Of a stretch of DNA of 64,000 nt, positions 24,815 through 52,110 are shown in pieces. Every line of letters starts with the position of its first letter. The stretch's first letter is position 1. The notes beneath the pieces are model-generated. The model worked only from the letters and a program-made list of their open reading frames with translations, did not search any database and had not been told where the DNA came from. Source of the stretch: Candidatus Latescibacterota bacterium (GTDB lineage: Bacteria > Latescibacterota > UBA2968 > UBA8231); NCBI GenBank assembly GCA_965203175.1, contig OZ241867.1:3520001-3584000 (forward strand). The letters are read 5' to 3'. The position numbers were made by a program, and so were the translations under genes.

Positions 24815-24990
24815 ACACTCTGTCGGCTAACGTGCGACAGCTTCCTGACGACTTGGATCCGCCGCAGAGTGTGGATCGGATGGCCTTGTCCGCTCGTGTA
24901 TCTGGCCGCTCATTAATAGAATGGCAGGGCTAAGTGAAAATCTCTTGGCCTTGGCGCTTCAAGCCGCGAGTGCAGGAAAAGGAGTCCATC

Positions 24991-33512: not shown

Positions 33513-33603
33513 AAGAGGCGAGTTGAATCAGCAAACCTTGTGCAATTGCAGTCCCAGAGCGACGCCTTCCCGCGCCGCCTAAACTCAAATCATGGGAATT
33601 CTA

Positions 33604-34377: not shown

Positions 34378-34414
34378 TTGAAGCCAGATGGGAGCATTTC
34401 GGGAGTTGATTTGA

Positions 34415-35395: not shown

Positions 35396-35776
35396 TCGAA
35401 GGAAGGCATTAAAAAGCCAGACGCATTGCAGGCTCAAAGGAGAATGCTATGACTAAGTCCCGTCTCGACGAGTGCGGATGGACCAGCTTTAGAGCCGAAC
35501 TCTTCTTAGTTGAAAAAGACGAGCCACCCGGCTGAATCTTATACCATAAGGAGGCCCAGAATGACGCAGCATGGTGAATTCGGTCTATCGACCATAGGGC
35601 AAATCTCTGTCACCGTGAAGGACCTCGACAGGGCAGTTACCTTCTACCGCGATCAACTGGGAATGCAGCTCCTGTTTCGGGTGCCGAACATGGCGTTCTT
35701 TGATTGCTCAGGCGTACGCCTTATGTTGAGTATTCCGGAGGAGCAGTCTGACGATATCCACTCTTCTATTCTGTAT

Positions 35777-36936
35777 GGCGTTGTTGCATGAATCATATCT
35801 GGGGCATCATTGTCGAATGTTGTTTTTTGTTCAGTTGATTTTTTCTACTCGATACGACTGGGGTTTGCCCACATGGATCATTCGATTGAGGAGGGCACAG
35901 CCGAGGCGACTTTCGACCTGTTGGTTGATCCAGCTACGCGCCTTCAGCTTGTCGCCGATGAGGTGCTTATAGCGATAGATTTGCGTTTCGGCCAACGAGC
36001 GTCGATGATAGCCACTGGCCTGTTTCCACTCCTTGCGTCCCTTTCGTCGTATGGCCCGCAGGATTTCATCGCGCGCCAACGGGGGGACCTTACAATTACC
36101 ATGCTGATGGATTGTAGCGTCTTTGCGCAGTGCGATGATCGGCCGAATCGAGGGATCACTCCGCGTGGCCAAGGCGTCGAACACCTTCTGTTTGTCATAG
36201 GCCCCATCGCCGCCTACCGCCTCCACCGCCTCGTCGACTTGGGTCAACAGAGGGGCCACCTGCGAGGCATCATCGATCCGATGGGACGTCAACGTCTGCG
36301 CGACCACCTCGCCGGTGGCCTCGTTGACCCCCACATGCAGTTTGCGCCACGTGCGCCGTTTGGTCCAGCCGTGTTGACGGACTTTCCTCTCGCCCTCGCC
36401 ATAGACTTTCAAACCCGTCGAATCCACTACCAAGTGCATCGGGCTAGCCGGGCTATCGGGCTGCTTTTTCGGCAACTCCACCGCCAAGGCCCCTTGGCGA
36501 CGCGACAAGGTCGAGTAGTCCGGCACGGCCAAGGCCAACCCCATCAAGTCCAACAGCGATTGGATAAACCCCTGCGTCTGGCGCAACGGCAACCCAAGCA
36601 ACACCCGCATCGTCAACATCCATTCAATCGCTGGATCCGAATAGACAAACTGAGCACCCCGTTGCGATGGCCCCTGAGCATACCATTGCTTCCACAGACC
36701 ATCGTCCAGCCACACCGTCAGGCTACCACGAGCCACCAACGCCCGATTATACGACGACCAATTCTTAACCCGATACACCGGTTGCGACTTGACCGAGGGC
36801 GAACTGCCAGATACTTTGCTCATCACAGGCTCTTTGGGAAGAAAGGAACGTGTTTCTTGCTGGAAACCACGAACCAATCTAACCGAAGAGCCTGACTCAT
36901 TTCAAGACCCGAACACAGCTTTCATGCAACAACGCC
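35777..36936 (-). mobile_element. IS5 family (IS903 group) insertion sequence, copy 1, 1160 bp
   Basis: TIR GGCGTTGTTGCATGAA/TTCATGCAACAACGCC; 9-bp TSD ATTCTGTAT on both sides. Confidence 0.96.
35831..36823 (-). CDS. IS5 family DDE transposase
   Basis: YRVKNWSSYNRAL..RG, VDSTGLKVYGEGE, DGAYD and YHRRSLAET motifs. Confidence 0.95.
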   Translation of the reverse strand: MSKVSGSSPSVKSQPVYRVKNWSSYNRALVARGSLTVWLDDGLWKQWYAQGPSQRGAQFVYSDPAIEWMLTMRVLLGLPLRQTQGFIQSLLDLMGLALAVPDYSTLSRRQGALAVELPKKQPDSPASPMHLVVDSTGLKVYGEGERKVRQHGWTKRRTWRKLHVGVNEATGEVVAQTLTSHRIDDASQVAPLLTQVDEAVEAVGGDGAYDKQKVFDALATRSDPSIRPIIALRKDATIHQHGNCKVPPLARDEILRAIRRKGRKEWKQASGYHRRSLAETQIYRYKHLIGDKLKARSWINQQVESRLGCALLNRMIHVGKPQSYRVEKIN

Positions 36937-37189: not shown

Positions 37190-38410
37190 AGGGGTATTTA
37201 TAGATACATAGTTTCAATAATATCTATTTTGTGCTTCACCAGCGGCGTTATGTCCGATGCTCTCAAGATTGGCTTTTGGGAAAAGCAGCGTAAGGGAGCT
37301 AATCAGCAAAACGAGCGACATCGTCCTGAGTGGTACAGAGCGGCAGGTGAACTGGGACTGGATTATGTTCGGATTTTACCCGATGCATGGCCCGCCGATA
37401 ATAGAGACTTCCTAATCGGCAACGCCGATAATTTCGCAGCAATCAATGAGACCGATCTAGCCCTGTTGATAGAAGCACTCAATGAAGCTGAGAGCAATGG
37501 TATCAAAGTTGTCCTTGCGATGGCCAGCTTGCCTGGCGCACGCTGGAAGCAGTTGAATGAGAACCAAGATGATGGCCGACTCTGGCGCGACGAAAGCTAC
37601 CATGAGCAAGCCTTCAATTTCTGGCGTCAGTTAGCAATGCGTTTGAAAAAGCATCCTGCAATCGTAGCTTACAATCCTCTTAATGAACCACATCCAGAGA
37701 AGGTATTCGGTTTTGAAGAACCGGACGAGAATTTCAGCCAATGGTTTCAGGGCATCCAGAATACGCCAGCTGACCTCAACCGATTTAACCAGCGGATGGT
37801 CGAATCCATCCGTTCAGTAGACGCAGATACACCCATCATGCTCGATGGCTGGTTCTATGCCGCTCCTCAAGCGTTCGACTTCAATCGTCCTGTAGATGAT
37901 GACAAAGTATTGTACGCTTTTCACAACCCCGGGCCGTGGCAGATGGTGACTTATAGAGTCAATAAGGGCCGGTACGCCTATCCAGACCGAGTTCCGAAGT
38001 GGTGGAACGGTCCTGTAGAGTCGTGGACTATCGATCGTCTTGCGGAGGAGACCAACGCGGTGCAGCGGTTTGCTGAGCGATATGAGATACCTTCTCACCG
38101 AATCATAGCTTCAGAATTCTGGTACGACCGCCGGCTCGAAGGCGCTGCAGCCTACCTGAGCGACCTAATAGAAATCTATAACAGCCGAGGTTGGCATTGG
38201 GCGTTTTACGCCTTTCGCGGTGGTGGATCATGGACGGGGTTAGATTATGAGATTGCACCGGATCACAAGATGGATTGGCATTATTGGCAAGCTGTCGAAC
38301 AGGGCAAAGACCCCGAGCAATTCAAGCCACGAGGAATGAACCCCTTGTGGAAAATACTACAACGCCAGTTTCGCAAAAACAGTAAGAGTCATGACGTCAT
38401 TCCCCCGTGA
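37190..38410 (+). CDS. Glycoside hydrolase family 5 protein; start codon apparently mutated
   Basis: YNPLNEP acid/base and ASEF nucleophile motifs; signal-peptide frame begins at AGG (37190) after the RBS, first usable start TTG at 37229. Confidence 0.8.
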   Translation, partial: RGIYRYIVSIISILCFTSGVMSDALKIGFWEKQRKGANQQNERHRPEWYRAAGELGLDYVRILPDAWPADNRDFLIGNADNFAAINETDLALLIEALNEAESNGIKVVLAMASLPGARWKQLNENQDDGRLWRDESYHEQAFNFWRQLAMRLKKHPAIVAYNPLNEPHPEKVFGFEEPDENFSQWFQGIQNTPADLNRFNQRMVESIRSVDADTPIMLDGWFYAAPQAFDFNRPVDDDKVLYAFHNPGPWQMVTYRVNKGRYAYPDRVPKWWNGPVESWTIDRLAEETNAVQRFAERYEIPSHRIIASEFWYDRRLEGAAAYLSDLIEIYNSRGWHWAFYAFRGGGSWTGLDYEIAPDHKMDWHYWQAVEQGKDPEQFKPRGMNPLWKILQRQFRKNSKSHDVIPP

Positions 38411-39404
38411 TCGAGAATCTACGTCACCGATGGTGACGACTGAGGAAGCTTCAGACATTCTCTGGAAGTACTGGGGTATCGCAGCCGTTCAAGTAGAAAC
38501 GCCTACTTCCAGAAACGTCCATTTTGTGCGCAGCGCGCAAGGAGATTCTGTTCTGCGGACCAATCCGGGGTGGGATGGTCCCTCGCCGCCAGAGTTGATC
38601 GTTCGATTTGTGGACCATCTTTCATCCTCGGGAGCACCAGTTCCCAAGATTGTGCCAACTCTTAACGGCGAATTCTCAGTTCCATATCGGGACTATACAG
38701 TCTCCTTGGAGAGCCTGCTTCTAGGCCAACCGCTAGATTCTCGCCATCTCGACTATCTGAAGAAGGCGGGCAAGGTTCTTGCGAGCATTCACAATGCTGC
38801 CGGCTTATTTCAGGAACAGCCAGTGCGCGAGCGATCGGTCCGTCGCTGGGCGCAAGATCGGCTTTCCAGCGCGCTCGATCGGCTTGATGCGGAAATCGCA
38901 CAGCCAGTGCACGAATTAGTGCAACTGCTGGAAAGCAGCCATGCAACGGCTCTTGACGCAAGCGTCCCTTGGATCTTTTGCCATCGGGATGTTCGTGCGG
39001 GTAATGTGATCGGGGCCGGCACTGGCAGTGTCGCGTTCACGGATTTCAGCGGCGGGGAGTTTTCTCCATCTTTGGTGGATCTTGTCATGACGCGTCATCA
39101 GTGGTTAATGGGGGATTTTATGGGTAAATCTAGACCGCTGAATGTTTCGGAGGCGAGAGAGATATTGCTTGGCTATCACGAGGGGAGGGCTCTATCTCCG
39201 TCGGAAATAAGAGCGTTTCCGGTGGTTTGGGCAGCCTACTATGCAGATAGACTCAGCTTTCTTTACCGCAAGTGGGGTTCTAAAGTCACAGGTCCTCCAT
39301 TCTCGAATTTTGATATCCACGGTGAGTTGATGCTCCTACCACATCGAGGAATCGAGATGGGAGACGAATTGCTGGAGAGTGCTGGGATCTCCCACAGCCT
39401 ATGA
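38391..39404 (+). CDS. Phosphotransferase (APH family)
   Basis: CHRDVRAGNV and FTDF motifs; start may be ATG at 38430. Confidence 0.8.
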   Translation: MTSFPRDRESTSPMVTTEEASDILWKYWGIAAVQVETPTSRNVHFVRSAQGDSVLRTNPGWDGPSPPELIVRFVDHLSSSGAPVPKIVPTLNGEFSVPYRDYTVSLESLLLGQPLDSRHLDYLKKAGKVLASIHNAAGLFQEQPVRERSVRRWAQDRLSSALDRLDAEIAQPVHELVQLLESSHATALDASVPWIFCHRDVRAGNVIGAGTGSVAFTDFSGGEFSPSLVDLVMTRHQWLMGDFMGKSRPLNVSEAREILLGYHEGRALSPSEIRAFPVVWAAYYADRLSFLYRKWGSKVTGPPFSNFDIHGELMLLPHRGIEMGDELLESAGISHSL

Positions 39405-39422
39405 CACCGTATGAGGTGCTGA

Positions 39423-40250
39423 TTGGATCGAATAGCGACCTATTACAACAGAAAGAACGAGACCCAGCGTCTCTTTAGTGGCCGGGGTGAGCTAGAATTC
39501 CTCCGCACTAAACAGATCATAGAGCAGTTCCTCCCCGATGAAACTGGTTTGTCGATAGCGGATGTTGGTGGAGGATCTGGACCGTACGCGTTCTGGCTTG
39601 CCGAGAAGGGGCACAAGGTCGCCTTGTTTGATTTGATGCCGAACCATGTTGAAGAGGCCGCGTCGATCAACGAGAAAGCGCCAAATCCGCTCACTCGAAT
39701 CGAGACTGCCGATGTGCGATCCCTTGAACTAGAGTCTCAGCAGTATGATGTAGTCCTACTTTTGGGACCCATGTACCATCTCACCGATGCAAACGAGCGC
39801 AGTCTAGTGCTGCGGAAAGTCGCCGATTGGCTTTCTCCCAACGGTGTCGGATATGTAGCATATATTTCGAGGTTTGCGTCGATGTTGGATGGTTTCATAA
39901 GTGGCTTATTTGAGGATCCGGAATATCTGGATATTGCGCGGCAAGACTTAGAAACAGGTGTCCACCGTCCCAACAAGGACAATACCAAATACTTTACTGA
40001 TGCCTATCTTCATCACCCGGATGAGATCGAACGGGAAGCTGAGGAGGCACATTTACAGATCGTGGACCACGTCGCCATTGAGGGTGTGGAGTGGTTATGG
40101 CAGAATTTTGATCAAATTTGGTCGGATCCGCGACAACGGACTATCATGCTCGAGATGATAGACCGAACCGATCGAGATCGCTCTATGTTGGGTGCGAGTG
40201 GCCATATTCTTCTTGTTGTGAAGAGAGGACCAATCATCGATGGAAACTGA
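39423..40250 (+). CDS. Class I SAM-dependent methyltransferase
   Basis: DVGGGSGPYA and DVVLLLGPMYHL motifs. Confidence 0.9.
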   Translation: MDRIATYYNRKNETQRLFSGRGELEFLRTKQIIEQFLPDETGLSIADVGGGSGPYAFWLAEKGHKVALFDLMPNHVEEAASINEKAPNPLTRIETADVRSLELESQQYDVVLLLGPMYHLTDANERSLVLRKVADWLSPNGVGYVAYISRFASMLDGFISGLFEDPEYLDIARQDLETGVHRPNKDNTKYFTDAYLHHPDEIEREAEEAHLQIVDHVAIEGVEWLWQNFDQIWSDPRQRTIMLEMIDRTDRDRSMLGASGHILLVVKRGPIIDGN

Positions 40251-40620
40251 ACTTACTGCCGAAGATCGGCAACTCCTGCAGCACCTAGAAGAAGAACTGT
40301 GGCGAGCGGAAACGCGTTTCGACTTATCGAGAATGGAGGAAGTCATCGCCGAGGACTTCTTCGAGTTTGGCAGGTCTGGGCGTATCTACCAGCGCGCCGA
40401 CACGCTTGCGGTACCTTCAACGCCCATAGAAGCGGTGATTCCACTTCCAGACTTTGAGGCGCGTCTTCTTTGTGAAGGTGTCGCACAGGTAACGTACAAT
40501 AGTGTTGTCACCTATGGCGAAAATATCGAGGAGGCACGAAGGAGCTCAATCTGGACGCGATCGTCTGGTGGTTGGAAGCTGAGGTTCCATCAAGGGACCC
40601 CATTTTCGAGTGACGATTGA
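40240..40620 (+). CDS. DUF4440 / NTF2-like protein
   Basis: DFFEFGRSG and RSSIW....GWKLRFHQGT motifs. Confidence 0.88.
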   Translation: METELTAEDRQLLQHLEEELWRAETRFDLSRMEEVIAEDFFEFGRSGRIYQRADTLAVPSTPIEAVIPLPDFEARLLCEGVAQVTYNSVVTYGENIEEARRSSIWTRSSGGWKLRFHQGTPFSSDD

Positions 40621-40650: not shown

Positions 40651-40705
40651 GCAGAACCAATAGTTGATGTCAGTTCGCGGGTTCGTGGGGCCGAGAACGT
40701 TAAAT
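40651..40705 (+). other. Chimeric or shortened attC-like site
   Basis: GCAGAAC...GCCGAGAAC-GTTAAAT; right half matches the attC at 44890-44983. Confidence 0.55.
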
Positions 40706-40734
40706 GAAATAGCATAGAACGAGTCTGAATGTTT

Positions 40735-41229
40735 ATGGAGCGCATCAATTTCGAACGAGTAGTTCCAACCGACCTGAACCGATTTCGTCCACTCGTTGAA
40801 GCGTACTGGCTGGAGATCATGCCACATGCAGATACGGTATGTACATCTGATGGTCGGGATTCGTATTCCGCAGATCGATTTCCCCTTTCCAACACGGAAC
40901 CAAGGGTATTTTGGGGGCTAAGCGGAGGATCCCCGGTGGGATTTATTTCATTCGCCATCTCTGGCACTAGCGCAAAGATAAACGACTTCTACGTCGTTCC
41001 TTCCAAGCGCAGGAGGGGCATTGGGACGTTCTTGGTAAAATCAGCCATAGAAATTACCGACAGCATGGGAGTTGACCGGATCGATTTAAATGTCCGGCGA
41101 GACAATCCAGCAGCTTTGAAATTCTGGGAAGCACAAGGATTTATGATTGGGCACTACGAACTGATTCAATACCGAGATCCGGAAAAGCGAATTGGATTTC
41201 GAGGAGCTCTTTCCTCTGATTTCGTGTAG
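40735..41229 (+). CDS. GNAT family N-acetyltransferase, copy 1
   Basis: FYVVPSKRRRGIG acetyl-CoA motif and N.AALKFWEAQGF. Confidence 0.92.
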   Translation: MERINFERVVPTDLNRFRPLVEAYWLEIMPHADTVCTSDGRDSYSADRFPLSNTEPRVFWGLSGGSPVGFISFAISGTSAKINDFYVVPSKRRRGIGTFLVKSAIEITDSMGVDRIDLNVRRDNPAALKFWEAQGFMIGHYELIQYRDPEKRIGFRGALSSDFV

Positions 41230-41273
41230 TTGTGACGTTTTTTTTACTGTAAAGCGTGGCGTCTCGTCGCTCT

Positions 41274-41540
41274 TTAAATCGTCGTCGCCAAAAATCCTCC
41301 GTCAACGCGGATATCCGTACCGGTGACGAAGCCGCTGGCCGCGTCCGACGCGAGGAACACCGCTGCGCCGACCAGGCCCTCGGGACGGCCAAAGCGGTCC
41401 ATAGGCGTGTGGGAGAGGATTTGTTGGCCGCGCTCGGTTGGGGTACCGTCGTCTTCAAAGGGCAAGCGGCGGTTTTGCTCGGCAGGGAAGAAGCCCGGGG
41501 TGATGGAGTTGACCCGCACGCCTTTGTCGGTCTACTCCCG
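41274..41540 (-). pseudogene. 3' fragment of an SDR oxidoreductase, copy 1
   Basis: VRVNSITPGFF...TPMDRFGRPE.LVGAAVFLASDAASGFVTG..IRVDGG; no N-terminal Rossmann motif; TGG>TAG stop. Confidence 0.9.
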
Positions 41541-41642
41541 CACTGAGATCGGACGGCCTTGTCCTCTCAGCCGCTCGTTGCGATTGCTACTATGCACCAA
41601 GAGACGTACCTTCGTTTCGCATAAATGGCATCTAGCGGCCGT

Positions 41643-41678
41643 TACCTGAACCAATTGTTCGGGTACAAGCAGTTATTG
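41643..41678 (+). other. Palindrome and candidate attI-like site 1
   Basis: TACCTGAAC-CAATT-GTTCGGGTA; CGGGTAC-5 bp-GTTATTG simple-site geometry. Confidence 0.5.
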
Positions 41679-41722
41679 GTAATTGGGATAAATCGGTGAT
41701 TCGATGTAGAAGGGATTTTTAT

Positions 41723-42328
41723 ATGAATGGAAGGCAGCTTAACAACCGATGGAAAGTTGGTGTAAAACATTCTCTTTATAGAGAGTCGGGAGACTGGTAT
41801 CATCAGTTAAAGAGGTTTCCTGGGGCTTTTTTTGATAAGAATGGTTATGTCATATTCAATACAGAGGAAGAGTATAGAAGTTGCCCATATCTACAGATTA
41901 AGCGGGATGTTCATGTGCCTAGTGGCATCTCAGATATGCCCAACTATGTGAGAGTTATAATAAATGGGGAAGAAGTGCTCCCTACACAATCGACCAATGT
42001 CGGCGAAAAAGAAACATATTACGAAGGCAAACTCAAAGAAGTAATTCTTACCAAATACGAGAGGGATCCGAAAGCAAGAGCTAAATGCTTGGAAACGTAT
42101 GGTACGAACTGCACTGTTTGCATGATGAATTTCAAGGATAAATATGGAGAAATTGCCCAAGATATTATTCACGTTCATCACTTAACACCTTTAGCCGTAC
42201 AGAACCAAGAACATATTATCGATCCTATAAAGGATTTACGCCCTGTTTGTCCTAATTGCCATTCTGTAATACATAAAAGGAATCCACCTTTTTCTATTCA
42301 GGAAGTTAGAGCTAAGCTACTCAACTAG
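41723..42328 (+). CDS. McrA-like HNH endonuclease with an unassigned N-terminal domain (gene cassette)
   Basis: YERDPKAR..C..CTVC..F...YG, HVHHL.PL and DLRPVCPNCH motifs; AT-rich. Confidence 0.9.
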   Translation: MNGRQLNNRWKVGVKHSLYRESGDWYHQLKRFPGAFFDKNGYVIFNTEEEYRSCPYLQIKRDVHVPSGISDMPNYVRVIINGEEVLPTQSTNVGEKETYYEGKLKEVILTKYERDPKARAKCLETYGTNCTVCMMNFKDKYGEIAQDIIHVHHLTPLAVQNQEHIIDPIKDLRPVCPNCHSVIHKRNPPFSIQEVRAKLLN

Positions 42329-42345
42329 TAATGAATATCCACTAC

Positions 42346-42438
42346 CAATAACATATCCATTCACGCTGCGCACCATTCGGCGCTTGGGAGTATACCCATC
42401 CCGCATACGTGGGGCCGTGAATTGTGAGGACGTTAAGT
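42346..42438 (+). other. attC site of the HNH cassette
   Basis: CAATAAC...ATTCACG/CGTGAAT arms...GTTAAGT; TACCAATAAC is the exact reverse complement of the cassette start GTTATTGGTA. Confidence 0.85.
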
Positions 42439-42461
42439 GAAAAACCAAAAGGAGAGAAGCA

Positions 42462-42828
42462 TTGCAGCGGCGTAGACGACAAACCCACTCGACGGAAATC
42501 AAGGGTCAGCGGTACATCTGGTACACGGATCGGCTATGGAAGCTAGCTCAAGAAACTACCCGAATTTGAAGTCGAGGTGGAGAGTTTTCAGGAACTAGAC
42601 CAAGACTGCTGGTTTGGCACGGGTCGTACGCCGACCATCCGAGAGGTGGCCGCTCACTGCAAACGAATCAACGAGGCCAACACCGACTTTCCCGTTGTTA
42701 TAAACGAGAACGGCCGTCTGATGGACGGCGGTCACCGTCTGGCTCGAGCCTTGCTTGAAGGGACTGCAACGATCAAGGCTGTCCAATTTGCACAGATGCC
42801 TGAGCCAGACGCCATCGAAGATATTTGA
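42462..42828 (+). pseudogene. ParB/Srx-like small protein, frameshifted (gene cassette)
   Basis: RBS then TTG; an extra A in CAAGAAACTA breaks the frame; C-terminal PVVINENGRLMDGGHRLARA motif. Confidence 0.75.
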
Positions 42829-42844
42829 TAGTGACCATCGCTTA

Positions 42845-44039
42845 AGCGTAGTATCAACTAATTATTGTGAGAATTTGTCATCTACTGTTGTGAGAATCGG
42901 GGATGTATGCAATCCGAATGTGTCGATTCTTTCGTCGGTTCCGTCCTCGCAGATGGGCACTAATGCGGTGCTGTGTGGTCTTGGCATCCGCATCGTCGCT
43001 GTTGTCCAGCATCATCTGCTGGATATCGCTGAAGAGGGTTTCGACCGGATTATCATCCGGACTGCCTTTGGGTAAGCTGATCCAATGCAACTTCAACGTG
43101 CGCATGACTCGACGCGTCTCTTTCGATTTGCGCGGATGCGCTGGATCTTGATCCAAGATGATCCACACTGGTATGTCCGGATACCACGGCCGAATCCGCC
43201 GCATAAAACGGCCCACATAGGAGGAATCTTTGCCCTCATAAAAGGCCCAATGGACGCGACCACTCCCTACCTCATACAGCAAAAACAAATAGAATCGGCC
43301 GCGCGTCTTTTGCCGACGCTCCAGCACCAAGCGTTGCGCCGAGGTATAGCGTCGTCCCCCATACGCTTTGACGACCACCGGCTTGACATCGAAAAAGACC
43401 AAGACGCCCTCGTCGGGCACATGCCGCCAGCGCCAACGAATGCGGGCGAGAATGGCTGGACGCTGGGGATCGCTACTGATTAGCTTACGCTGGACATGCC
43501 GTAAACGGAACCCCCTTTTTTCAAAATGCGTCGAATATATTCACAACTTATTTTGGAGACTATGTGTTGCCGAATCAGATACGTGCGCAGCTTGGAAAGC
43601 GACCAACGTCCATAGGGCAAGCCTACCTCACAGGGAGGCTGCTCGGCCAGGCGACAGATGGCGGCCTTTTGCTCGGTGGTCAGACGAACAGGCCGACCGC
43701 GTTGGGTGGACTGCTCTATACTAGCCAGCCCCCGCTGATTAAAGGCATGCAAATCGGCGTAGATCGTATTGGGGTGGACTTCCAAGGTCTGGGCAATCTC
43801 CGTAGCGTTCATACCTTCGTTATACAGCAAAATAGCCTGTGCGCGACGCTGTTGAGCGGTTTCCAGTGGCTCCTCCACCCAGAGCAGAAGGCGTCCAATT
43901 TCAGCCGCGCAGGGTTTGCGTAATTTCAAAGGACGAGCCATAGTTGACCTCCGATTCTAAAAGAGGAGAGGAAAGGATGCCAATCTATTTTAACATATTT
44001 AGTTGACAAATTCTTACCTCATTTTGTTGATACTACGCT
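42845..44039 (-). mobile_element. IS630 family insertion sequence
   Basis: TIR AGCGTAGTATCAAC/GTTGATACTACGCT, TA duplication on both sides, HTH ORF plus DDE ORF. Confidence 0.92.
42878..43941 (-). CDS. IS630 transposase in two overlapping frames (probable -1 frameshift)
   Basis: ORF A 43480-43941 (HTH, RWSL..L); ORF B to 42878 (FFD, ILDQ, LPKGSPDDNPVE); slippery AAAAAAGGGGG at the junction. Confidence 0.85.
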
Positions 44040-44123
44040 TAACAGCGGGTTAATGCTGCGTAGCCTTCGCCGCTTGGCCCTAATAGGCAACTTCGGAATT
44101 CATCAATCCGCACAACTTTATAG
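44040..44123 (+). other. attC site of the ParB-like cassette, split by IS630
   Basis: Empty site restores GCTTAAC; arms GCGGGTTAATG/CATCAATCCGC; core degenerate (TTTATAG). Confidence 0.75.
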
Positions 44124-44181
44124 GCCCTGACCACCGCTTTCTGCGCTCTGTTTCGATCTTCGTATGGTATTTTCCCTATGC

Positions 44182-44209
44182 TTGACAAGTGTACCATAAT
44201 TGGTACATT
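44182..44209 (+). promoter_or_regulatory. TA promoter with palindromic operator
   Basis: TTGACA-16 bp-TACATT overlapping TGTACCA-TAAT-TGGTACA. Confidence 0.75.
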
Positions 44210-44214
44210 GGAGG

Positions 44215-44568
44215 ATGATGAACAGAGACAAGCCGCTGCCAGTTCGCTTCTTCCGTACGACGACAGGGCGTGAGCCGGTGAGAGCATGGCTGCGCAGCCT
44301 GGATCGAGAGGCGAAGAGGATCATTGGTGCGGACATCAAGACCGTTCAGTTTGGGTGGCCCCTTGGAATGCCGCTGGTACGCAAGCTTGAGAGCGATCTT
44401 TGGGAGGTCCGTAGCACCCTGCCCAATTCGATAGCCCGAGTAGTCTTTACGGTCTACGAAGGGACGATCCTCCTGCTGCACGGTTTCATCAAGAAAAGTG
44501 AGAAGATCCTCGCCAACGATCTCACTTTGGCACGATCCAGATTAGCGATGCTCCGGGAGGCACGATGA
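44215..44568 (+). CDS. RelE/ParE (HigB-like, Gp49/DUF891) toxin
   Basis: GREPVRAWL, GWPLGMPLVRKL..DLWEVR and LLHGFIKKS motifs. Confidence 0.9.
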   Translation: MMNRDKPLPVRFFRTTTGREPVRAWLRSLDREAKRIIGADIKTVQFGWPLGMPLVRKLESDLWEVRSTLPNSIARVVFTVYEGTILLLHGFIKKSEKILANDLTLARSRLAMLREAR

Positions 44569-44843
44569 AAAGACATGTCGGCAGCAGTTTTGATGAATTC
44601 CTCGCAGAAGAGGGCCTGCTCAGTGAAGCAGAGGCAACGGCCGTCAAACGCGTTATTGCCTATCAGTTGAGTCAGTTCATGGAGGAAAACAAGCTGTCCA
44701 AATCGGCGATGGCCAAGCGCATGCAAACTAGTCGGTCGGCGCTGGATCGTCTGCTTGACGCGTCCAATCCGTCCGTAACGCTACAGACCATGGATCGCGC
44801 AGCGCGGGCTCTGGGCAAAAAGCTCCGCATCGAGCTGATCTGA
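44565..44843 (+). CDS. XRE-HTH antitoxin (HigA-like)
   Basis: GSSFDEFLAEEG and MAKRMQTSRSALDRLLD..N.SVTL motifs; ATGA overlap with the toxin. Confidence 0.9.
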   Translation: MKRHVGSSFDEFLAEEGLLSEAEATAVKRVIAYQLSQFMEENKLSKSAMAKRMQTSRSALDRLLDASNPSVTLQTMDRAARALGKKLRIELI

Positions 44844-44889
44844 TTTCGCCTAAGGATTCGTCTTGTAGGCTATCGAATTTTTTCACGGC

Positions 44890-44983
44890 ATATAACACAT
44901 CGGTGTTGTGCTTTGTCGCCTTTCAGGCACCTTGGCCTCCGGCAACCCGCTTCGCAGGTTCGTAGGTGCCGAGAACGTTAAAT
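44890..44983 (+). other. attC site of the TA cassette
   Basis: ATATAAC...TCGG/CCGA arms...GTTAAAT; GCATATAAC complements the cassette start TTTATAGGC at 7/9. Confidence 0.7.
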
Positions 44984-45012
44984 GAAATAGCATAGAACGA
45001 GTCCGAATATTT

Positions 45013-45507
45013 ATGGAACGCATCAATTTCGAACGAGTAGTTCCAACCGACCTGAACCGATTTCGTCCACTCGTTGAAGCGTACTGGCTGGAGATCATGC
45101 CACATGCAGATACGGTATGTACATCTGATGGTCGGGATTCGTATTTCGCAGAGCGATTTCCTCTTTCCAACACGGAACCAAGGGTATTTTGGGGGCTAAG
45201 CGGAGGATCCCCGGTGGGATTTATTTCATTCGCCATCTCTGGCACTAGCGCAAAGATAAACGACTTCTACGTCGTTCCTTCCAAGCGCAGGAGGGGCATT
45301 GGGACGTTCTTGGTAAAATCAGCCATAGAAATTACCGATGGCATGGGAGTTGACCGGATCGATTTAAATGTCCGGCGGGACAATCCAGCAGCTTTGAAAT
45401 TCTGGGAAGCACAAGGATTTATGATTGGGCACTACGAACTGATTCAATACCGAGATCCGGAAAAGCGAGTTGGATTTCGAGGAGCTCTTTCCTCTGATTT
45501 CGTGTAG
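45013..45507 (+). CDS. GNAT family N-acetyltransferase, copy 2
   Basis: 160/164 aa identical to copy 1. Confidence 0.92.
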   Translation: MERINFERVVPTDLNRFRPLVEAYWLEIMPHADTVCTSDGRDSYFAERFPLSNTEPRVFWGLSGGSPVGFISFAISGTSAKINDFYVVPSKRRRGIGTFLVKSAIEITDGMGVDRIDLNVRRDNPAALKFWEAQGFMIGHYELIQYRDPEKRVGFRGALSSDFV

Positions 45508-45551
45508 CTGTGACGTTTTTTTCACTGTAAAGCGTGGCGTCTCGCCGCTCT

Positions 45552-45878
45552 TTAGATCGTCGTCGCCAAGAACCCCCCGTCAACGCGGATGTCCGTGCCG
45601 GTGACGAAGCCGCTGGCCGCGTCCGATGCGAGAAACACCGCCGCGCCGACTAACTCCTCGGGGCGGCCAAAGCGGTCCATGGGGGTGTGGGAGAGGATTT
45701 GTTGGCCGCGTTCGGTTGGGGTGCCGTCGTCTTCAAAGAGCAAGCGGCGGTTTTGCTCGGCGGGGAAAAAGCCCGGGGTGATGGAGTTGACCCGCACGCC
45801 TTTGTCGGCCCACTCCCGTGCGAAGACCGGAGGGCTTTGTCCGCTCAGCCGCTTGTTGCGATTGCGACTATGAGCCAA
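45552..45878 (-). pseudogene. 3' fragment of an SDR oxidoreductase, copy 2, in frame with an unrelated ~18-codon leader
   Basis: MAHSRNRNKRLSGQSPPV followed by FAREWADKGVRVNSITPGFF... Confidence 0.85.
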
Positions 45879-45917
45879 GAGAAAGTACCTTCGTTTCGCA
45901 TAAATAGCATCTAGCGA

Positions 45918-45955
45918 CTTGTACCCGAACTAATTGTTCAGGTACAAGCTTAAGC
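45918..45955 (+). other. Palindrome and candidate attI-like site 2
   Basis: CTTGTACCCGAAC-TAATT-GTTCAGGTACAAG followed by C-TTAAGC (TTRRRY). Confidence 0.5.
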
Positions 45956-46022: not shown

Positions 46023-46376
46023 ATGTCGCGCTGTGGATTGTGTCTACAGGATCGTGTCCTGAGGAAAAGCCATTTGATGCCTAAGTCCCTGTACAAGGTA
46101 CTTAGGAACGCATTTCCAGAGTCTGGAAAGGACCTTGTGTTCTCCTCCATGGAAGAGAGAAGCAGTGTCTATACTGATAACCAAGTCGTGACACCCTTCT
46201 TGTGTGACGCTTGTGAAGGAATTTTGAGTAGGAAGGGTGAACAGACCGTGTGTAGAGAGTGCCATCGCGGCCATGGCAAGTTCATACTGCGAGATGAAGT
46301 CAAGAAGGCCTCGGCCATACTCACCGAGGGTGGTGAGAGGTGGATCAACCCGATCAAGGAAACTACAGATCTGAAC
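46023..46376 (+). pseudogene. Zn-binding HNH-like protein, 3' truncated by IS5
   Basis: CGLC...KSHLMPK and LCDACE motifs; frame runs into the IS TIR. Confidence 0.7.
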
Positions 46377-47536
46377 GGCGTTGTTGCATGAATCATATCT
46401 GGGGCATCATTGTCGAATGTTGTTTTTTGTTCAGTTGATTTTTTCTACTCGATACGACTGGGGTTTGCCCACATGGATCATTCGATTGAGGAGGGCACAG
46501 CCGAGGCGACTTTCGACCTGTTGGTTGATCCAGCTACGCGCCTTCAGCTTGTCGCCGATGAGGTGCTTATAGCGATAGATTTGCGTTTCGGCCAACGAGC
46601 GTCGATGATAGCCACTGGCCTGTTTCCACTCCTTGCGTCCCTTTCGTCGTATGGCCCGCAGGATTTCATCGCGCGCCAACGGGGGGACCTTACAATTACC
46701 ATGCTGATGGATTGTAGCGTCTTTGCGCAGTGCGATGATCGGCCGAATCGAGGGATCACTCCGCGTGGCCAAGGCGTCGAACACCTTCTGTTTGTCATAG
46801 GCCCCATCGCCGCCTACCGCCTCCACCGCCTCGTCGACTTGGGTCAACAGAGGGGCCACCTGCGAGGCATCATCGATCCGATGGGACGTCAACGTCTGCG
46901 CGACCACCTCGCCGGTGGCCTCGTTGACCCCCACATGCAGTTTGCGCCACGTGCGCCGTTTGGTCCAGCCGTGTTGACGGACTTTCCTCTCGCCCTCGCC
47001 ATAGACTTTCAAACCCGTCGAATCCACTACCAAGTGCATCGGGCTAGCCGGGCTATCGGGCTGCTTTTTCGGCAACTCCACCGCCAAGGCCCCTTGGCGA
47101 CGCGACAAGGTCGAGTAGTCCGGCACGGCCAAGGCCAACCCCATCAAGTCCAACAGCGATTGGATAAACCCCTGCGTCTGGCGCAACGGCAACCCAAGCA
47201 ACACCCGCATCGTCAACATCCATTCAATCGCTGGATCCGAATAGACAAACTGAGCACCCCGTTGCGATGGCCCCTGAGCATACCATTGCTTCCACAGACC
47301 ATCGTCCAGCCACACCGTCAGGCTACCACGAGCCACCAACGCCCGATTATACGACGACCAATTCTTAACCCGATACACCGGTTGCGACTTGACCGAGGGC
47401 GAACTGCCAGATACTTTGCTCATCACAGGCTCTTTGGGAAGAAAGGAACGTGTTTCTTGCTGGAAACCACGAACCAATCTAACCGAAGAGCCTGACTCAT
47501 TTCAAGACCCGAACACAGCTTTCATGCAACAACGCC
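46377..47536 (-). mobile_element. IS5 family (IS903 group) insertion sequence, copy 2, no TSD
   Basis: Same TIRs and identical translated ORFs as copy 1; flanks GATCTGAAC and TTTAATAGG differ. Confidence 0.96.
46431..47423 (-). CDS. IS5 family DDE transposase
   Basis: Protein identical to copy 1. Confidence 0.95.
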   Translation of the reverse strand: MSKVSGSSPSVKSQPVYRVKNWSSYNRALVARGSLTVWLDDGLWKQWYAQGPSQRGAQFVYSDPAIEWMLTMRVLLGLPLRQTQGFIQSLLDLMGLALAVPDYSTLSRRQGALAVELPKKQPDSPASPMHLVVDSTGLKVYGEGERKVRQHGWTKRRTWRKLHVGVNEATGEVVAQTLTSHRIDDASQVAPLLTQVDEAVEAVGGDGAYDKQKVFDALATRSDPSIRPIIALRKDATIHQHGNCKVPPLARDEILRAIRRKGRKEWKQASGYHRRSLAETQIYRYKHLIGDKLKARSWINQQVESRLGCALLNRMIHVGKPQSYRVEKIN

Positions 47537-47537
47537 T

Positions 47538-50408
47538 TTAATAGGTGAAAGTAAAAATGACACAGACCGCTGGCGCTTACTTGGGATCGAACCAATTAGC
47601 TATCCGCAATCAAGCGAGGACGATCATAACATACTCTACGTGGGCGTCCGTGGTTTAGCCGACCTTGTCCAGCGCAGTGTCCTCGACTGGCAAGGCAAAA
47701 TTACTGAGATCGCGCAAAAACCACCTCCCCTTGAGGAGGAAATAGCCGACCTCATTGAGGATGCGCTTGAGGACGCCACGAGAACCCGGTTCTTCACCGA
47801 AGCGGCTTCAGATCCCAAATGGATTGATTGGCTCGACAGACGCGGACATCTAAATGCACTATTCGGCGACGAGACGCTCAGCAAGCGGGATAAAATCTTC
47901 TCTAAGTGGTTAGCCCAACAATTTGCATACAACCATGCTGATGCGCTGCTCCTGCTGATTGGCAAGCACAATATGCGCCTGCCTCCGCAACTCTGGTTCG
48001 ATTTGGGGAGAAAAATCTGGGAGGATGAAGATTTTTCGCTGGCTAGAGACGCTTTGTCTCGTTGGATTTCGCTCTTGCTTACTACCATTCCGGTGAATAG
48101 AAGTTCATATGCGTTTCTATTGAAAATAGGCGAGCATTGTATTAAGCGAGGCATGTTGGACAGTCTCTCGCAGATATTCAATGCAATGGCGGGAAGCCGC
48201 TTGCTTCTCAAGAAGGGTTTCGTTTGGCCCGATGCGAATGCGGGCGATGTGAACGCACCGGTTGATGTAGAATTGCCGCTGCTCGGCAATCACCACGCAC
48301 TAAATGAACTGTGGGAGAAAGGTCTGAAACCAAATTTATCTCAAATAGCCGAACCTGTATTTGAGCGGGTTATAAGACATATAGAAGAACAGTACCTCAC
48401 ACAAAATGCTTGGCAGAAGGCGAGTCGTGAGTGGGAAAGAGTAAGCTATAGGCGCTCTGCTATTGAGCCTCACGAGTTGGATAGTCACTCTCAAGCGGTT
48501 GACGTGTTGATCGATGCAGCACGAGACTGTCTTGAATGGTTGATCCTGAATCAAGCAGGTGCAGCGGCGCAGTGGTGTATCCGTCTTGCAAACTCGGATG
48601 CGCCACTGCTACGCCGCCTAGCGGTGCATGGGATATCCGAACGAAAAGACCTGACAGCAGATGATAAAACCGATTGGCTGCTAAAACATATAAATATACA
48701 CGAATTGCCTGTTCACCACGAAGTATTTCGGGCAGTACGGCTAGCTTACCCCAAGGCTAGCCCGGAACTCCGAGAGAACCTCATTGAAACCGTGTGGACC
48801 TATCGTTGGCCGAACGAGGAAGACCCCGACAGGGAAAGTCATACCGCATATCAGTATTTCAACTGGTTTTATTGGCTCCATAAATCAGATCTCAATTGTA
48901 CCATAGCTAAGCAAGCCTTGGATGAGATACAGGAGGAGTACCCAGACTTCAAACCAAGAGAGCATCCAGACCTGACTCATTGGAGTGGTCCAGTCCAGGA
49001 TGTCGTTATGCAAGGCCCTTGGACTGTTGAAGAGCTACTGGCAAAATCGGCTGCGGATTGGCTTGGCGACTTGTTGTCTTTCCAAAGCACTGAATTAAAT
49101 GGGCGCGATTTTTTGGGACTCAGGCGTGATGTCGCAGAAGCTGCAAGACAAAATTTTGATTGGGGTCTTGAGTTGGCCGACGCATTGGCTAAGGATGGAG
49201 AGTGGGACGTTCACTTCTGGGCCGACTTGATACACGCTTGGTCAGAGATGGAGTTGGATGAAGACGAGTATCGTAAAGTGCTTCACTGGCTAGGCAAGGC
49301 CGAGTTGTATCCAAAACACAATCGTGAGATCGCCAGTATGCTTCATGCGCTGGTGAAGGATGGAGGTACTTCCTATGCCTTGAATATACTTTCGCAGGCT
49401 AACAAGACCGCTGTGGCTTTGTGGCATCACTTTGATCGGACTGAGCAGATCGAGAGAACGGACAACTGGCTAGACATAGCCATTAACCATCCTACGGGAA
49501 TCCTTACCGAATTCTGGCTGAAGGGGCTCTCCCTATGGCGAAAGCAACAAGACCCTGAACTCATGAGTATCAGTGACGAGTACCGCATGGCACTATCAAA
49601 CATAGTGCAGGACCAGGAGCTACAGGGCAAACTGGGGCGGACTATTCTCGCGAGTCAATTTGGATTTCTCTTGGCCGTTGATGAGGCATGGACTCGGGAG
49701 AACCTGCTGCCGCTTTTTGATCCTGATAGCGATGACTTCCAAGCTGCTTGGAACGGCTTTCTGATTTGGGGAACCCTCAATCTTGCCGTGGCCGACGCTA
49801 TGGCCTACCTATTCCTCAAGGCTGTTGAGAGGATCGATGACAACCTCTCTAGTAAGCGCGACCGATTTATCAAATATTATATCTCTATGCTTGCGTACTT
49901 CGCTGAAGATCCTATTGGGCAATGGATTCCCGCGTTTTTCCAATGTCGTGGTCAAGAGGCTAAGAACCATTTTGCAGAAGAAGTGGGATATTGTCTGGGG
50001 GATCTAGATGAAGCAGAGCAACGAGAATGGTGGCGGCGTTGGCTTAAGCAATATTGGGAGCATCGCTTACAAGGTGTGCCGGCTGGTACCGTCCTTGAGG
50101 CTGGTGAGATCAAATACATGCTTGGCTGGTTGCCACGCTTGACCTCAGTATTTCCCGAGGCCGTTGATTTAGCAGTTCAGATGCCACCAACCCCATTGCA
50201 GGACTACTGGGTGATACATAAACTAGAAGAAGGCGATCTATGGCGGAGTCATCCCGAAGAGGTAGCGAAATTGTTGGTTCATTGGGGGAAGTGTGATTTA
50301 CAGGAAGAAGCATGGTTTTCAGGGGTGAAACTAATCAATAAGCTCCTTCAGTTGGACATTTCATCGGAACTCAAACAGCAACTGAAGGAACTGAAAGTTC
50401 AACTGTAG
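47538..50408 (+). pseudogene. DUF4020-type large helical protein (usually SIR2-fused), 5' truncated at the IS
   Basis: Frame open right up to the IS end (LIGE...RWRLLGIEPISYP); RSAIEPHE, AINHP.G, AAWNGFL and WL..YW..R.QG.P motifs recalled from SIR2-DUF4020 proteins. Confidence 0.72.
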
Positions 50409-50577
50409 CTATGTGCAGATTGCTGAATCTCCACCGGCCCTAAACTCCTCACATAGATAAAGAAATCCGGTACTATAGCTTACAGGGCCCAAAACTCGGG
50501 TGCCCGCCGGCGTTTCTGCAAGAATAAGGGGAGTAATTGATACGAGACGATTCGTAGATAACCCCAGGAGAAGCGAC

Positions 50578-50838
50578 ATGAGCCGAGTAGATTTTCAGTT
50601 GCCCGATACAGTCTTTGAACGGCTACAAAAACTGGCTGCCCGCACGGGACGCAGCGAAACCGAATATATGATTGAGGCTATCCGAGAGTATCTGGATGAC
50701 CTCGAAGATTTGCATCTTGCCGAACAACGACTGAAAGACATTCACGAGGGGAAATCTCAGACCGTGCCTCTTGAGAAGGTCATGAAAGAGCATAGGCTTG
50801 GCAGATTGAGCTTGCCAAGGACGCCGAGCGCGAATTGA
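50578..50838 (+). CDS. RHH antitoxin (RelB/TraY/DUF6290-like), last codons frameshifted
   Basis: RLQKLAARTGRS..Y...AI.EYLDDLEDLHLAEQRL...G...TVPLE.V motif. Confidence 0.85.
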   Translation: MSRVDFQLPDTVFERLQKLAARTGRSETEYMIEAIREYLDDLEDLHLAEQRLKDIHEGKSQTVPLEKVMKEHRLGRLSLPRTPSAN

Positions 50839-50861
50839 GAAGAATAGATCGACAAGCGGCA
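50792..50861 (+). pseudogene. RelE toxin N-terminal remnant
   Basis: AWQIELAKDAERELRRIDRQAA; ATG disrupted by an inserted A at 50794; remainder deleted. Confidence 0.7.
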
Positions 50862-50880
50862 ATGAAAAGGAGATGGACTC

Positions 50881-51123
50881 GTGATCAAGTCAACTCTAAC
50901 CGATAAATGGCAAACCACCATCCCGGTCGAAGTCCGCAAGGCGCTCCACCTCAAGCCTCGGCAGCAGCTCATCTACGAGTTGACTGACGGTGCCGTTTTG
51001 GTGAAGCCCCAGCCCGAAACGCTCAAGGATCTATATGGCTGTCTTGTAGATGGCAAACCCTCTGCTTCCAAATCCGAGGAACGAGAGACAGCACGCAAAG
51101 CAAGAGCGGTCAGATACGAATGA
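50881..51123 (+). CDS. AbrB/MazE/SpoVT family antitoxin (orphan)
   Basis: STLTDKWQTTIPVEVRKALHLKP...L.G.L motif; RBS AAGGAG. Confidence 0.85.
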   Translation: MIKSTLTDKWQTTIPVEVRKALHLKPRQQLIYELTDGAVLVKPQPETLKDLYGCLVDGKPSASKSEERETARKARAVRYE

Positions 51124-51192
51124 TCAAGTATCTCAAACGGCGCTCGCCATGAACGCTCATCAAGGTACTCGCCGCCATTTGCCCGCCTCAAA

Positions 51193-52110
51193 ATGAACTC
51201 TTTCCGCAACAACCGCCTACGCGACCATGAAACACCTCTGAGCACGGTGTGGCTGCTCAACGACATCGCCGAGTCAAAGGGCAAACAGGAGCTATTCACA
51301 CGCCATTCGCCACAAGCCCTCAAAGCACTTCGCGACATGGCTGTCATTCAGAGCGCTGAATCCTCCAACCGCATTGAGGGCGTGACGGTCGCCCAAGCTC
51401 GCCTTTATCCGCTGGTGCTCGGCCAAGCGAAACCCCGTGACCGCTCCGAGCAGGAGGTGCAGGACTATCGCCGTGCCTTGAACGAAATTCACTCCGACTA
51501 CGCCGCGCTTTCTATCACGCCGGACACCCTGCAACGCCTACATGCCCTTTGCCAATCCGCCAGCGGCGATGCGGGTCAATTCAAACAAGTCGATAACGAC
51601 ATTGTGGAATTCCTGCCCGGACAGGCCCCGGTCGTTCGGTTCCGCTGTGTGAAGGCTGCGGAGACTCCGGCGGCTGTAGAAGAACTCTGCCAGCATTATC
51701 AGCACGCCCTCGACCAAGAGAATATCCCGCCGCTCATCGCCATCGCCGCCCTCGTCTTGGATTTTCTTTGCATCCATCCTTTCCGGGACGGCAACGGCCG
51801 CGTGTCTCGACTGCTTACTCTGTTGGCGCTCTATCAGCACGGCTACGAGGTTGGTATTTACATCAGCTTGGAACGCCTCATTGAGGAATCTCAGGAGGAC
51901 TACTACGAATGCCTCCGGCTCAGTTCCCACCGCTGGCACGATGGCAAACAGGAACTGACGCCTTGGTCCAACTTCATCTTCGCGATCATCCGCCGTGCTT
52001 ACATCGAATTGGAAAAACGCGCCGGTCAGATCAAGGCCCACGGGGTGCCAAGTCCAAGCGGATACTCGCCACCATTCGCGCCCAACCGGGCGAATTCCGT
52101 TATTCAATAA
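51193..52110 (+). CDS. Fic family protein (class II), C-terminus frameshifted and truncated
   Basis: HPFRDGNGRVSR and inhibitory SNRIEG motifs; tail PRGAKSKRIL...GEFR lies in another frame. Confidence 0.88.
   Translation: MNSFRNNRLRDHETPLSTVWLLNDIAESKGKQELFTRHSPQALKALRDMAVIQSAESSNRIEGVTVAQARLYPLVLGQAKPRDRSEQEVQDYRRALNEIHSDYAALSITPDTLQRLHALCQSASGDAGQFKQVDNDIVEFLPGQAPVVRFRCVKAAETPAAVEELCQHYQHALDQENIPPLIAIAALVLDFLCIHPFRDGNGRVSRLLTLLALYQHGYEVGIYISLERLIEESQEDYYECLRLSSHRWHDGKQELTPWSNFIFAIIRRAYIELEKRAGQIKAHGVPSPSGYSPPFAPNRANSVIQ

Follow-up and report, generated by a model that had tools for sequence, protein, structure and literature searches.

Repeated SDR gene tails in a Latescibacterota genome as possible attachment scars of serially accreted, integrase-less modules

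The stretch of 64,000 nucleotides examined here, referred to as the window, covers positions 3,520,001 to 3,584,000 of contig OZ241867.1 in the assembly of a Candidatus Latescibacterota bacterium (GCA_965203175.1). It carries two direct copies of a block of about 1 kb, each composed of a GNAT acetyltransferase gene on the forward strand, a convergent C-terminal fragment of an SDR gene, and some 130 bp of non-coding DNA with a terminal palindrome (X1 and X2 in the two copies). At a probability of roughly 0.45, the SDR tails with their flanking DNA might be the attachment scars of small modules lacking an integrase, which accreted serially at an SDR gene and next to which an integron cassette was inserted later.

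The repeat and the different ages of its parts

Self-BLAST of the window aligns positions 40674-41670 with 44951-45949 at 93.9% identity over 999 bp, the starts lying 4277-4279 bp apart. A first-pass annotation, based on the letters alone, had described a block recurring with 4279-bp spacing, a unit of about 3.1 kb once an IS630-like insertion sequence (IS) is discounted, and a divergence point overlapped by a palindrome of 9-13 bp. All three descriptions hold: the unit without the IS measures about 3.08 kb, and the palindrome has 13-bp arms, matched at 9/13 positions in copy 1 and 12/13 in copy 2. The end of homology reads GGTACAAGC in both copies (41662-41670 and 45941-45949). Beyond it, pairwise alignment reproduces the continuations reported earlier, AG followed by TTATTGG in copy 1 and TTAAGCG with AG absent in copy 2. 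The two SDR tails stand in direct orientation 4279 bp apart and share an identical junction to X. An HNH gene, a small open reading frame (ORF), the IS630-like element, a toxin-antitoxin pair and a GNAT gene lie between them, and the module so delimited has no integration genes of its own. The positions of these features and the divergence of the repeat by segment are given in Table 1.

Table 1. Features of the repeat and its surroundings, with differences between the two copies where the segments are shared
Feature	Position	Strand	Differences between copies	Remarks
X0, X-like fragment	24874..24915	+		left edge of low-GC region, at boundary with GC-rich core genes
First 31 bp of repeat	40674-40704		3/31 (9.7%)	
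Left end of repeat, to G of GTTAAAT	40674..40699	+		G at 40699
GNAT segment	40705-41229		10/525 (1.9%)	
GNAT acetyltransferase gene, copy 1	40735..41229	+		Pfam Acetyltransf_1, E 2.8e-16
44-bp spacer 3' of SDR stop codon, left end of T unit 1	41230..41273	-	3/44 (6.8%)	
SDR tail 1, last 88 codons and stop	41274..41540	-	23/267 (8.6%)	Pfam adh_short_C2; alignment to intact SDRs
X1, 132 bp, non-coding	41541..41672	.	24/132 (18.2%)	conserved 32-bp block 41606-41637
HNH unit, integron-type cassette	41673..42432	+		HNH ORF 41696-42328 (Pfam HNH, E 1.3e-5); attC-type site 42346-42438
Small gene, possibly frameshifted	42462..42828	+		35-codon ORF, then 83-codon ORF in another frame
IS630-like insertion sequence	42845..44039	-		TA target duplication; Pfam DDE_3, HTH_32; transposase split into two ORFs
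Toxin-antitoxin pair, Gp49/HigB-like then HTH antitoxin	44200..44843	+		Pfam Gp49, E 9e-18; HTH_37; weak HigA match
GNAT gene, copy 2	45013..45507	+		Pfam
T unit 2	45508..45949	-		spacer 45508-45551; SDR tail 45552-45818, intact-looking; X2 45819-45949
First 118 codons of a 271-aa-family gene, cut by IS	46023..46376	+		
IS5/IS903-like IS, copy 2	46377..47536	-		Pfam DDE_Tnp_1_5; no target-site duplication

The repeat is a mosaic of two parts that differ in age, the part made up of spacer, SDR tail and X (the T unit) being the older, and does not stem from one duplication. The divergence pattern along it cannot be produced by a single duplication followed by neutral decay. An ordinary segmental duplication of about 4.3 kb with subsequent divergence, or the co-assembly of two strain haplotypes, would account for direct copies 4.28 kb apart with an overall identity of 94%. 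The divergence is however uneven by a factor of ten, running from 1.9% in the GNAT segment to 18.2% in X with the change falling at a structural boundary, and the DNA past the two copies is unrelated. A protein of the window is moreover recorded on a contig of 6,579,469 bp, which speaks against fragmentary co-assembly, and we give duplication or co-assembly very little credence.

The SDR fragments cover positions 157/166-235 of the 236-position adh_short_C2 profile. Their parent family consists of proteins of 268-285 aa, and the tail begins with R-E-W-A-D-K-G, past the catalytic Y-x-x-x-K region that can be seen in intact homologues. Identity over the tail ranges from 78 to 98% among the 120 matches listed, and genes as conserved as this are typical targets of integration. 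Every residue of tail 2 also occurs in intact homologues, and the intact 285-aa SDR P0001 is 98% identical to it. Tail 1 is decaying: an in-frame stop replaces the W, and three further residues are changed. All four residue-level changes between the tails thus lie in T unit 1, the copy further from the presumed gene, and none in T unit 2.

The two tails differ mostly at synonymous sites, as does the displaced 3' end left by e14-type integration into icd. The 23 differences are distributed over the first, second and third codon positions as 2/3/18 (binomial p 1.3e-5), and the tails yield a dS of 0.37, a dN of 0.013 and a dN/dS of 0.036, against a dS of 0.035 and a dN/dS of 0.31 for the GNAT genes. 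The synonymous rates of tail and GNAT differ (Fisher p 2.4e-6), the divergence of the tails being about tenfold deeper. The substitution pattern and the contrast with GNAT argue that the tails diverged mostly inside working genes and were not copied jointly with GNAT. The tails separated long before the GNAT segments did, and through most of the intervening period constraint kept them to the sequence of the SDR protein. The GNAT segment, on the other hand, appears to have been shared recently, through exchange or homogenisation between modules. Base composition also sets the tails apart from their surroundings. Their GC content is 64-66%, with a GC content at third codon positions (GC3) of 0.76 in tail 1 and 0.83 in tail 2, close to the 0.75-0.77 of the host core genes, and they sit inside low-GC DNA (48% in GNAT, 38.5% in HNH).

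Copying of the kind carried out by diversity-generating retroelements was considered for the tails and dropped: 21 of the 23 differences are transitions, in both directions, and no reverse-transcriptase domain occurs among the scanned ORFs. X as diverged SDR coding sequence is ruled out by the alignment read directly, in which the spacing of the catalytic Y-x-x-x-K does not fit.

T units on other contigs, the palindrome and the integron cassette

A protein database was searched with the reading frame that runs through X and the tail. From the 120 matches listed, 14 proteins were fetched, one of which (P0121) is the window's own; nine of the 14 are tail fragments from other contigs. The start is encoded by X in the frame of the tail in P0122, P0124 and P0126, and in another frame of X in P0125. 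The junction of X and tail thus recurs outside the window, in at least five proteins in all, two of them lacking GNAT. Several of the fragments are frameshifted, deleted, or mutated at positions that are invariant in intact SDRs, as would be expected of displaced tails. In P0122 and P0208 the stop codon is lost and translation reads through the same 44-bp spacer ('PRFTVKKKTSQ'). Both leave the window sequence exactly at 41229|41230, the end of the GNAT stop codon, which is also the point where divergence between the window copies jumps. This indicates that the recurrent module is the T unit of 443 bp, and that GNAT is a separable neighbour. The type of X and the residue markers of the tail are discordant across the T units: X1 groups with P0122 and P0126, and tail 1 groups with copy 2. 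Tails therefore appear to have been exchanged relative to X. A plasmid collection, searched in distant mode, yielded five matching records, in which pieces of HNH or SDR cover <=9% of the query each.

No Rfam match was found at E<=1 over 25-52.5 kb, X included, compensatory changes support none of the 37 pairs of an X1/X2 consensus fold, and no sigma-70-like promoter was found in X. A third X-like sequence, X0, is recovered with the X1/X2 profile (nhmmer E 0.006). Its first 22 nt match X1 at 20 positions. With a local alignment score of 34, where 500 shuffles reached 26 at most, it ranks first among the non-self matches of the window.

The palindrome at the end of X has its arms at 41639-41651 and 41657-41669 in X1, and at 45918-45930 and 45936-45948 in X2. 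The left arm of X2 is the exact reverse complement of the right arm of X1 (13/13), and at 0-1 mismatch the arm motif is confined to these two loci within the window. The 13-5-13 arrangement might be the core site of a tyrosine recombinase acting in trans, with the SDR tail a passenger kept gene-like by conversion from a resident SDR gene. A circle of 4.28 kb (3.08 kb before the arrival of IS630) with GNAT, tail and X would then have entered the palindrome of a resident module. Such stacking would fit the end of homology one base past the right arm and the uniqueness of the motif, and a third half-site of the GTACC type lies just upstream, in the best-conserved 32 bp of X. The perfect cross-pairing, set against 9/13 and 12/13 within each site, is the pattern of reciprocal hybrid sites. 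The apparent swap nevertheless comes down to one variable position per arm, with a rough chance estimate of about 0.05. The four residue changes of tail 1 are far fewer than neutral decay over the divergence of X would leave, so that both tails would need repeated conversion. The discordance between X type and tail markers further shows that T is not one inherited block, and no recombinase of the required kind is seen among the 70 ORFs scanned. We regard stacking at the palindrome as unlikely.

The left homology boundary of copy 2 falls exactly in the middle of a smaller palindrome (44940-44962), which has 7-bp arms around 3 nt. An ACCYG/CRGGT core is common to these arms and to the palindrome of X, and copy 1 retains the right arm only.

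The unit that follows X1 is of a different nature. A home-made scan for attC architecture (AAC, a 4-6-nt spacer, a 7-nt box, a loop, a complementary box with <=1 bulge, a 5-8-nt spacer and GTTRRRY), cruder than the published IntegronFinder covariance model, returned a single site on both strands of the 64 kb, just past the HNH stop codon; 30 Markov shuffles give a mean of 0.47 per window. A strict search for both 7-bp consensus boxes with folding finds no site at gene boundaries. Folding of eight intergenic stretches yields an attC-like hairpin only after HNH, and X2 has a z of -3.8. The bases 41672-41679 at the junction of X1 and the HNH unit, GTTATTGG, recur in exact reverse complement (8/8) as the box at 42345-42352. 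A first box complementary in this way is characteristic of cassettes linearised at G|TT, which makes the HNH unit a genuine integron-type cassette and bears out its earlier placement exactly at AG|TTATTGG. It is the only unit that combines a G|TT boundary with a complementary first attC box; the repeated block does not. At the end of X, GTT in copy 1 corresponds to CTT in copy 2 (with a 2-bp gap), and at the left end of T, TTG in copy 1 corresponds to CTG in copy 2. As GTT is not conserved in copy 2, the HNH cassette looks to have been inserted at a secondary GTT, outside any recognisable attI or attC, and its position does not look like a sign that X is an attI site. Use by IntI of sites other than attI and attC, and of partial attI sites, has been described (PMC12901181). 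The cassettes at attG and partial-attI sites described there resemble the present case in that a cassette with a canonical attC sits here at a GTT of neither an attC nor a recognisable attI. Unlike in those cases, the repeated block here lacks an attC, copy 2 does not share the GTT, and intI is missing from the vicinity.

The first-pass annotation had seen in the two copies either a repeated attI platform whose intI was deleted, or small elements with integron cassettes as variable cargo. The platform is not supported: no intI, adjacent or otherwise, occurs among the scanned ORFs, GTT is absent from copy 2, and in an attI platform arising by deletion the tail would have been a pseudogene at the outset, contrary to the pattern of substitutions. 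As for the cargo, the HNH unit alone qualifies as a cassette, the attC-architecture site behind it being the only one in the window. The gene after copy 2, previously called a different HNH-like gene, has no Pfam, NCBIfam or PADLOC match at E<=0.01, and does not resemble the HNH protein (BLASTP E 0.18).

A wider role for integrons would take X as a site of the attI or partial-attI type and T as an unusual cassette or platform in a CALIN (cluster of attC sites lacking an integron integrase), with an IntI encoded elsewhere duplicating and shuffling cassettes to give the repeat. A CALIN, by the IntegronFinder definition, has two or more attC sites close together. A canonical cassette does stand exactly at the end of X1. 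In the next unit, that of the small gene, TTAAGT at 42433 precedes the start, and GCTTAAC (6/7 of the expected box) comes after the ORF, where IS630 sits. This IS-disrupted second candidate amounts to a first box only; reconstruction of the pre-insertion site under IS630 gave no convincing attC, the rest of the site not being found. The first 26-31 bp of the repeat, which precede GTTAAAT, are similar to the 3' half of the site behind HNH (nhmmer match to 42399-42447, E 0.032). Against this, the one attC-architecture site in 64 kb compares with the 0.47 expected by chance, the trinucleotides at both ends of T are altered in copy 2, and X has no box complementary to the start of the unit. The genes to the left (37229-40620) overlap or abut and leave no space for attC sites, and a gene fragment carried in a cassette would evolve neutrally, which the tails do not. 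An integron origin of the repeat is, on this evidence, distinctly improbable.

Serial integration into an SDR gene

We propose that each T unit is an attachment scar of the attR type. A small element with its own SDR 3' end would enter a chromosomal SDR gene Campbell-fashion, with the crossover at the fixed junction ahead of the R-E-W codons, slightly 3' of it, or anywhere in the 311-bp shared stretch. The tail of the element would become the working 3' end of the gene, and the former tail would be displaced and is now joined to X. Repetition of these steps would stack modules, the oldest furthest from the gene. The modules without a recombinase might be decayed, or might have been moved by an enzyme acting in trans, like cis-mobilizable elements (CIMEs). 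At later times an integron integrase would have added the HNH cassette at the GTT five bases past the X1 palindrome, IS630 would have entered the next unit, the GNAT segment would have been exchanged or homogenised between the two modules, and an IS5-like element would have severed the array from whatever lay to its right.

Serial integration of this kind would explain why the junction is fixed, why the tails were under selection and are host-like in composition, why decayed copies occur elsewhere and how the ages are ordered, as well as the variable DNA on both sides of T. From left to right, the window contains the degraded X0, the decaying T unit 1 with its stop codon and the intact-looking T unit 2, an order that the arrival of new modules on the right would produce.

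Several observations weigh against this account. The 64-kb window holds no intact SDR of the tail family, no SDR 5' fragment and no third tail, and the right side of the array is an IS junction in place of an adjoining intact target gene. Domain scans of 70 ORFs turned up IS transposases as the only recombinases, and no integrase, resolvase or IntI. The replacement of 311 bp is about twice that of the e14 case. X0 stands without an adjacent SDR tail or a palindrome, and the near-identity of the two GNAT segments demands an extra event. Between X1 and X2 the arms of the palindrome look swapped, a pattern that depends on one variable position per arm and would place the crossover in the palindrome and not at the SDR junction. 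A scan of a genome collection with the tail listed 80 loci with tail identities of <=78%, the window's own lineage not being among them. At 76 of these a single near-full-length match was found, and four fell below the 45% filter; none of the 80 listed contains a second tail, X-like DNA, or homologues of GNAT, HNH or orf143. In a weak test of pairwise mosaicism at the protein level, none of the 7140 pairs formed by 120 intact SDR proteins combined a near-identical N-terminal part with a discordant tail.

The second of the earlier proposals, small non-autonomous elements that integrate into an SDR gene, carry its replacement 3' end and stack in tandem, is thus upheld in part. The selection on the tails, their divergence ten times deeper than that of GNAT, their host-like GC3 and the recurrence of the X-tail junction on other contigs favour it. 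The absence from the window of an intact SDR, an SDR 5' part or a recombinase, and the lack of a second tail at the 80 listed loci, do not.

The principle behind serial integration is a known one, seen in e14 at icd, in CIMEs and tandem accretion (PMC5704250), and in tycheposon islands. The prophage e14 leaves a displaced 3' end of 163 bp in icd and supplies a new one (PMC6379469). As in e14 and phage 21 at icd of Escherichia coli, integration here would have occurred inside a conserved protein-coding gene, with a replacement 3' end and a displaced pseudo-copy on the far side, and here too the copies differ mainly at synonymous sites. e14, however, brings an integrase of its own and leaves a single copy of 163 bp, whereas the window has a 311-bp shared stretch, two or three scars in series, no integrase and no working gene. 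Arrays formed by CIMEs and by tandem accretion of integrative and conjugative or mobilizable elements at the 3' end of a target gene adjoin an intact target gene, and a partner element with an integrase is usually identifiable; neither is seen in the window. Successive integrations that push older elements inward, leaving elements separated only by partial copies of the target, are described in bioRxiv 10.1101/2020.12.28.424599. The tycheposon islands of Prochlorococcus treated in that work are similar in that newcomers displace older elements inward and degenerate partial targets lie scattered, and differ in having tRNA genes as targets and tyrosine or serine recombinases carried by the elements. 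What is distinct in the present case is the target gene, the replaced end of 311 bp with its spacer, the tiny recombinase-less modules, and the integron cassette beside an attachment sequence. The repeats known from CIMEs and accretion arrays measure tens of base pairs, not about 300. Literature searches, aimed at the comparison systems and not at docking in SDR genes itself, found no description of such docking.

If serial integration is correct, a conserved SDR gene joins tRNA genes, icd, fda and similar loci among the chromosomal sites used for docking. The lineage concerned has been little studied, and the nearest SDR relatives in the reference genomes, among the matches listed, belong to Verrucomicrobiota and Planctomycetota. 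Modules of about 2-3 kb with toxin-antitoxin, nuclease and acetyltransferase genes would then be able to accumulate at the SDR gene without a recombinase of their own. The window would also provide a natural example of an integron cassette outside an integron, beside the attachment site of another element. For annotation, it would follow that a repeated gene tail with strong divergence at third codon positions marks serial integration and not duplication.

A more elaborate possibility treats the T unit as a portable landing pad, in which the 311-bp SDR stretch serves as an anchor for the homologous entry of recombinase-less circles that leaves the gene intact, and the palindrome as a core site both for the stacking of further modules and for the entry of integron cassettes outside any integron. 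This would amount to a family of non-autonomous elements making simultaneous use of three recombination systems, host or foreign, and we hold it to be quite improbable.

Neighbouring genes and the ends of the array

The small gene next to the HNH cassette has no match in the family library. Its second part contains a D-G-G-H-R motif, which we take to be ParB/sulfiredoxin-like, again without a library match. The ORF after copy 2 corresponds to the first 118 residues of a family of 262-278 aa without a Pfam domain. The 271-aa protein P0243 is 100% identical to it over the matched stretch, and 85% of the query is covered; residues 130-271 of P0243 have no significant match in the window (best E 0.73).

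The IS5/IS903-like element that cuts this gene is 99.8% identical to the one at 35770-36936 (self-BLAST). Copy 1 of the IS (35777-36936) is flanked by a perfect 9-bp duplication, ATTCTGTAT, and the flanks of copy 2 differ. Both genes flanking copy 2 are truncated, the 271-aa-family gene on the left and a Dsr1-like ORF on the right, the latter matching only positions 481-1222 of a 1263-position model. Judged from these flanks, copy 2 probably marks a rearrangement or deletion junction. The missing target duplication and the truncated flanks explain the lack of a right end to the array, whose original right neighbour has been lost or moved. A candidate for the missing N-terminus of the Dsr1-like ORF, orf143, is ruled out, its homologues being proteins of 246-278 aa.

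The two direct IS5/IS903-like copies bracket 10.6 kb, both copies of the 1-kb repeat included, and copy 1 interrupts a glyoxalase-family gene. As a composite transposon the pair could mobilise the DNA it encloses; recombination could instead remove that DNA. Besides the 1-kb repeat, self-BLAST of the window shows four repeats only, the largest of which is this IS pair (1167 bp). Short dispersed repeats (35-61 bp, 82-97% identity) occur in GC-rich parts at 13634-13668/53195-53229, 8415-8457/9216-9258 and 3429-3488/8119-8178.

To the right of the IS lies a set of defence-type genes (47538-50408 and 50500-52110), comprising the Dsr1-like ORF, which lacks the N-terminal part of the model and is open to the IS end, RHH and PrlF/MazE-like antitoxins, and a SoFic-like Fic protein. 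Genes for a methyltransferase and an APH-family phosphotransferase are neighbours twice, at 33592-35395 and 38391-40250, in opposite order. GC skew changes from negative to positive at about 15000-16000 and is positive over most of the window from there on; the switch could be related to replication or be an effect of gene orientation.

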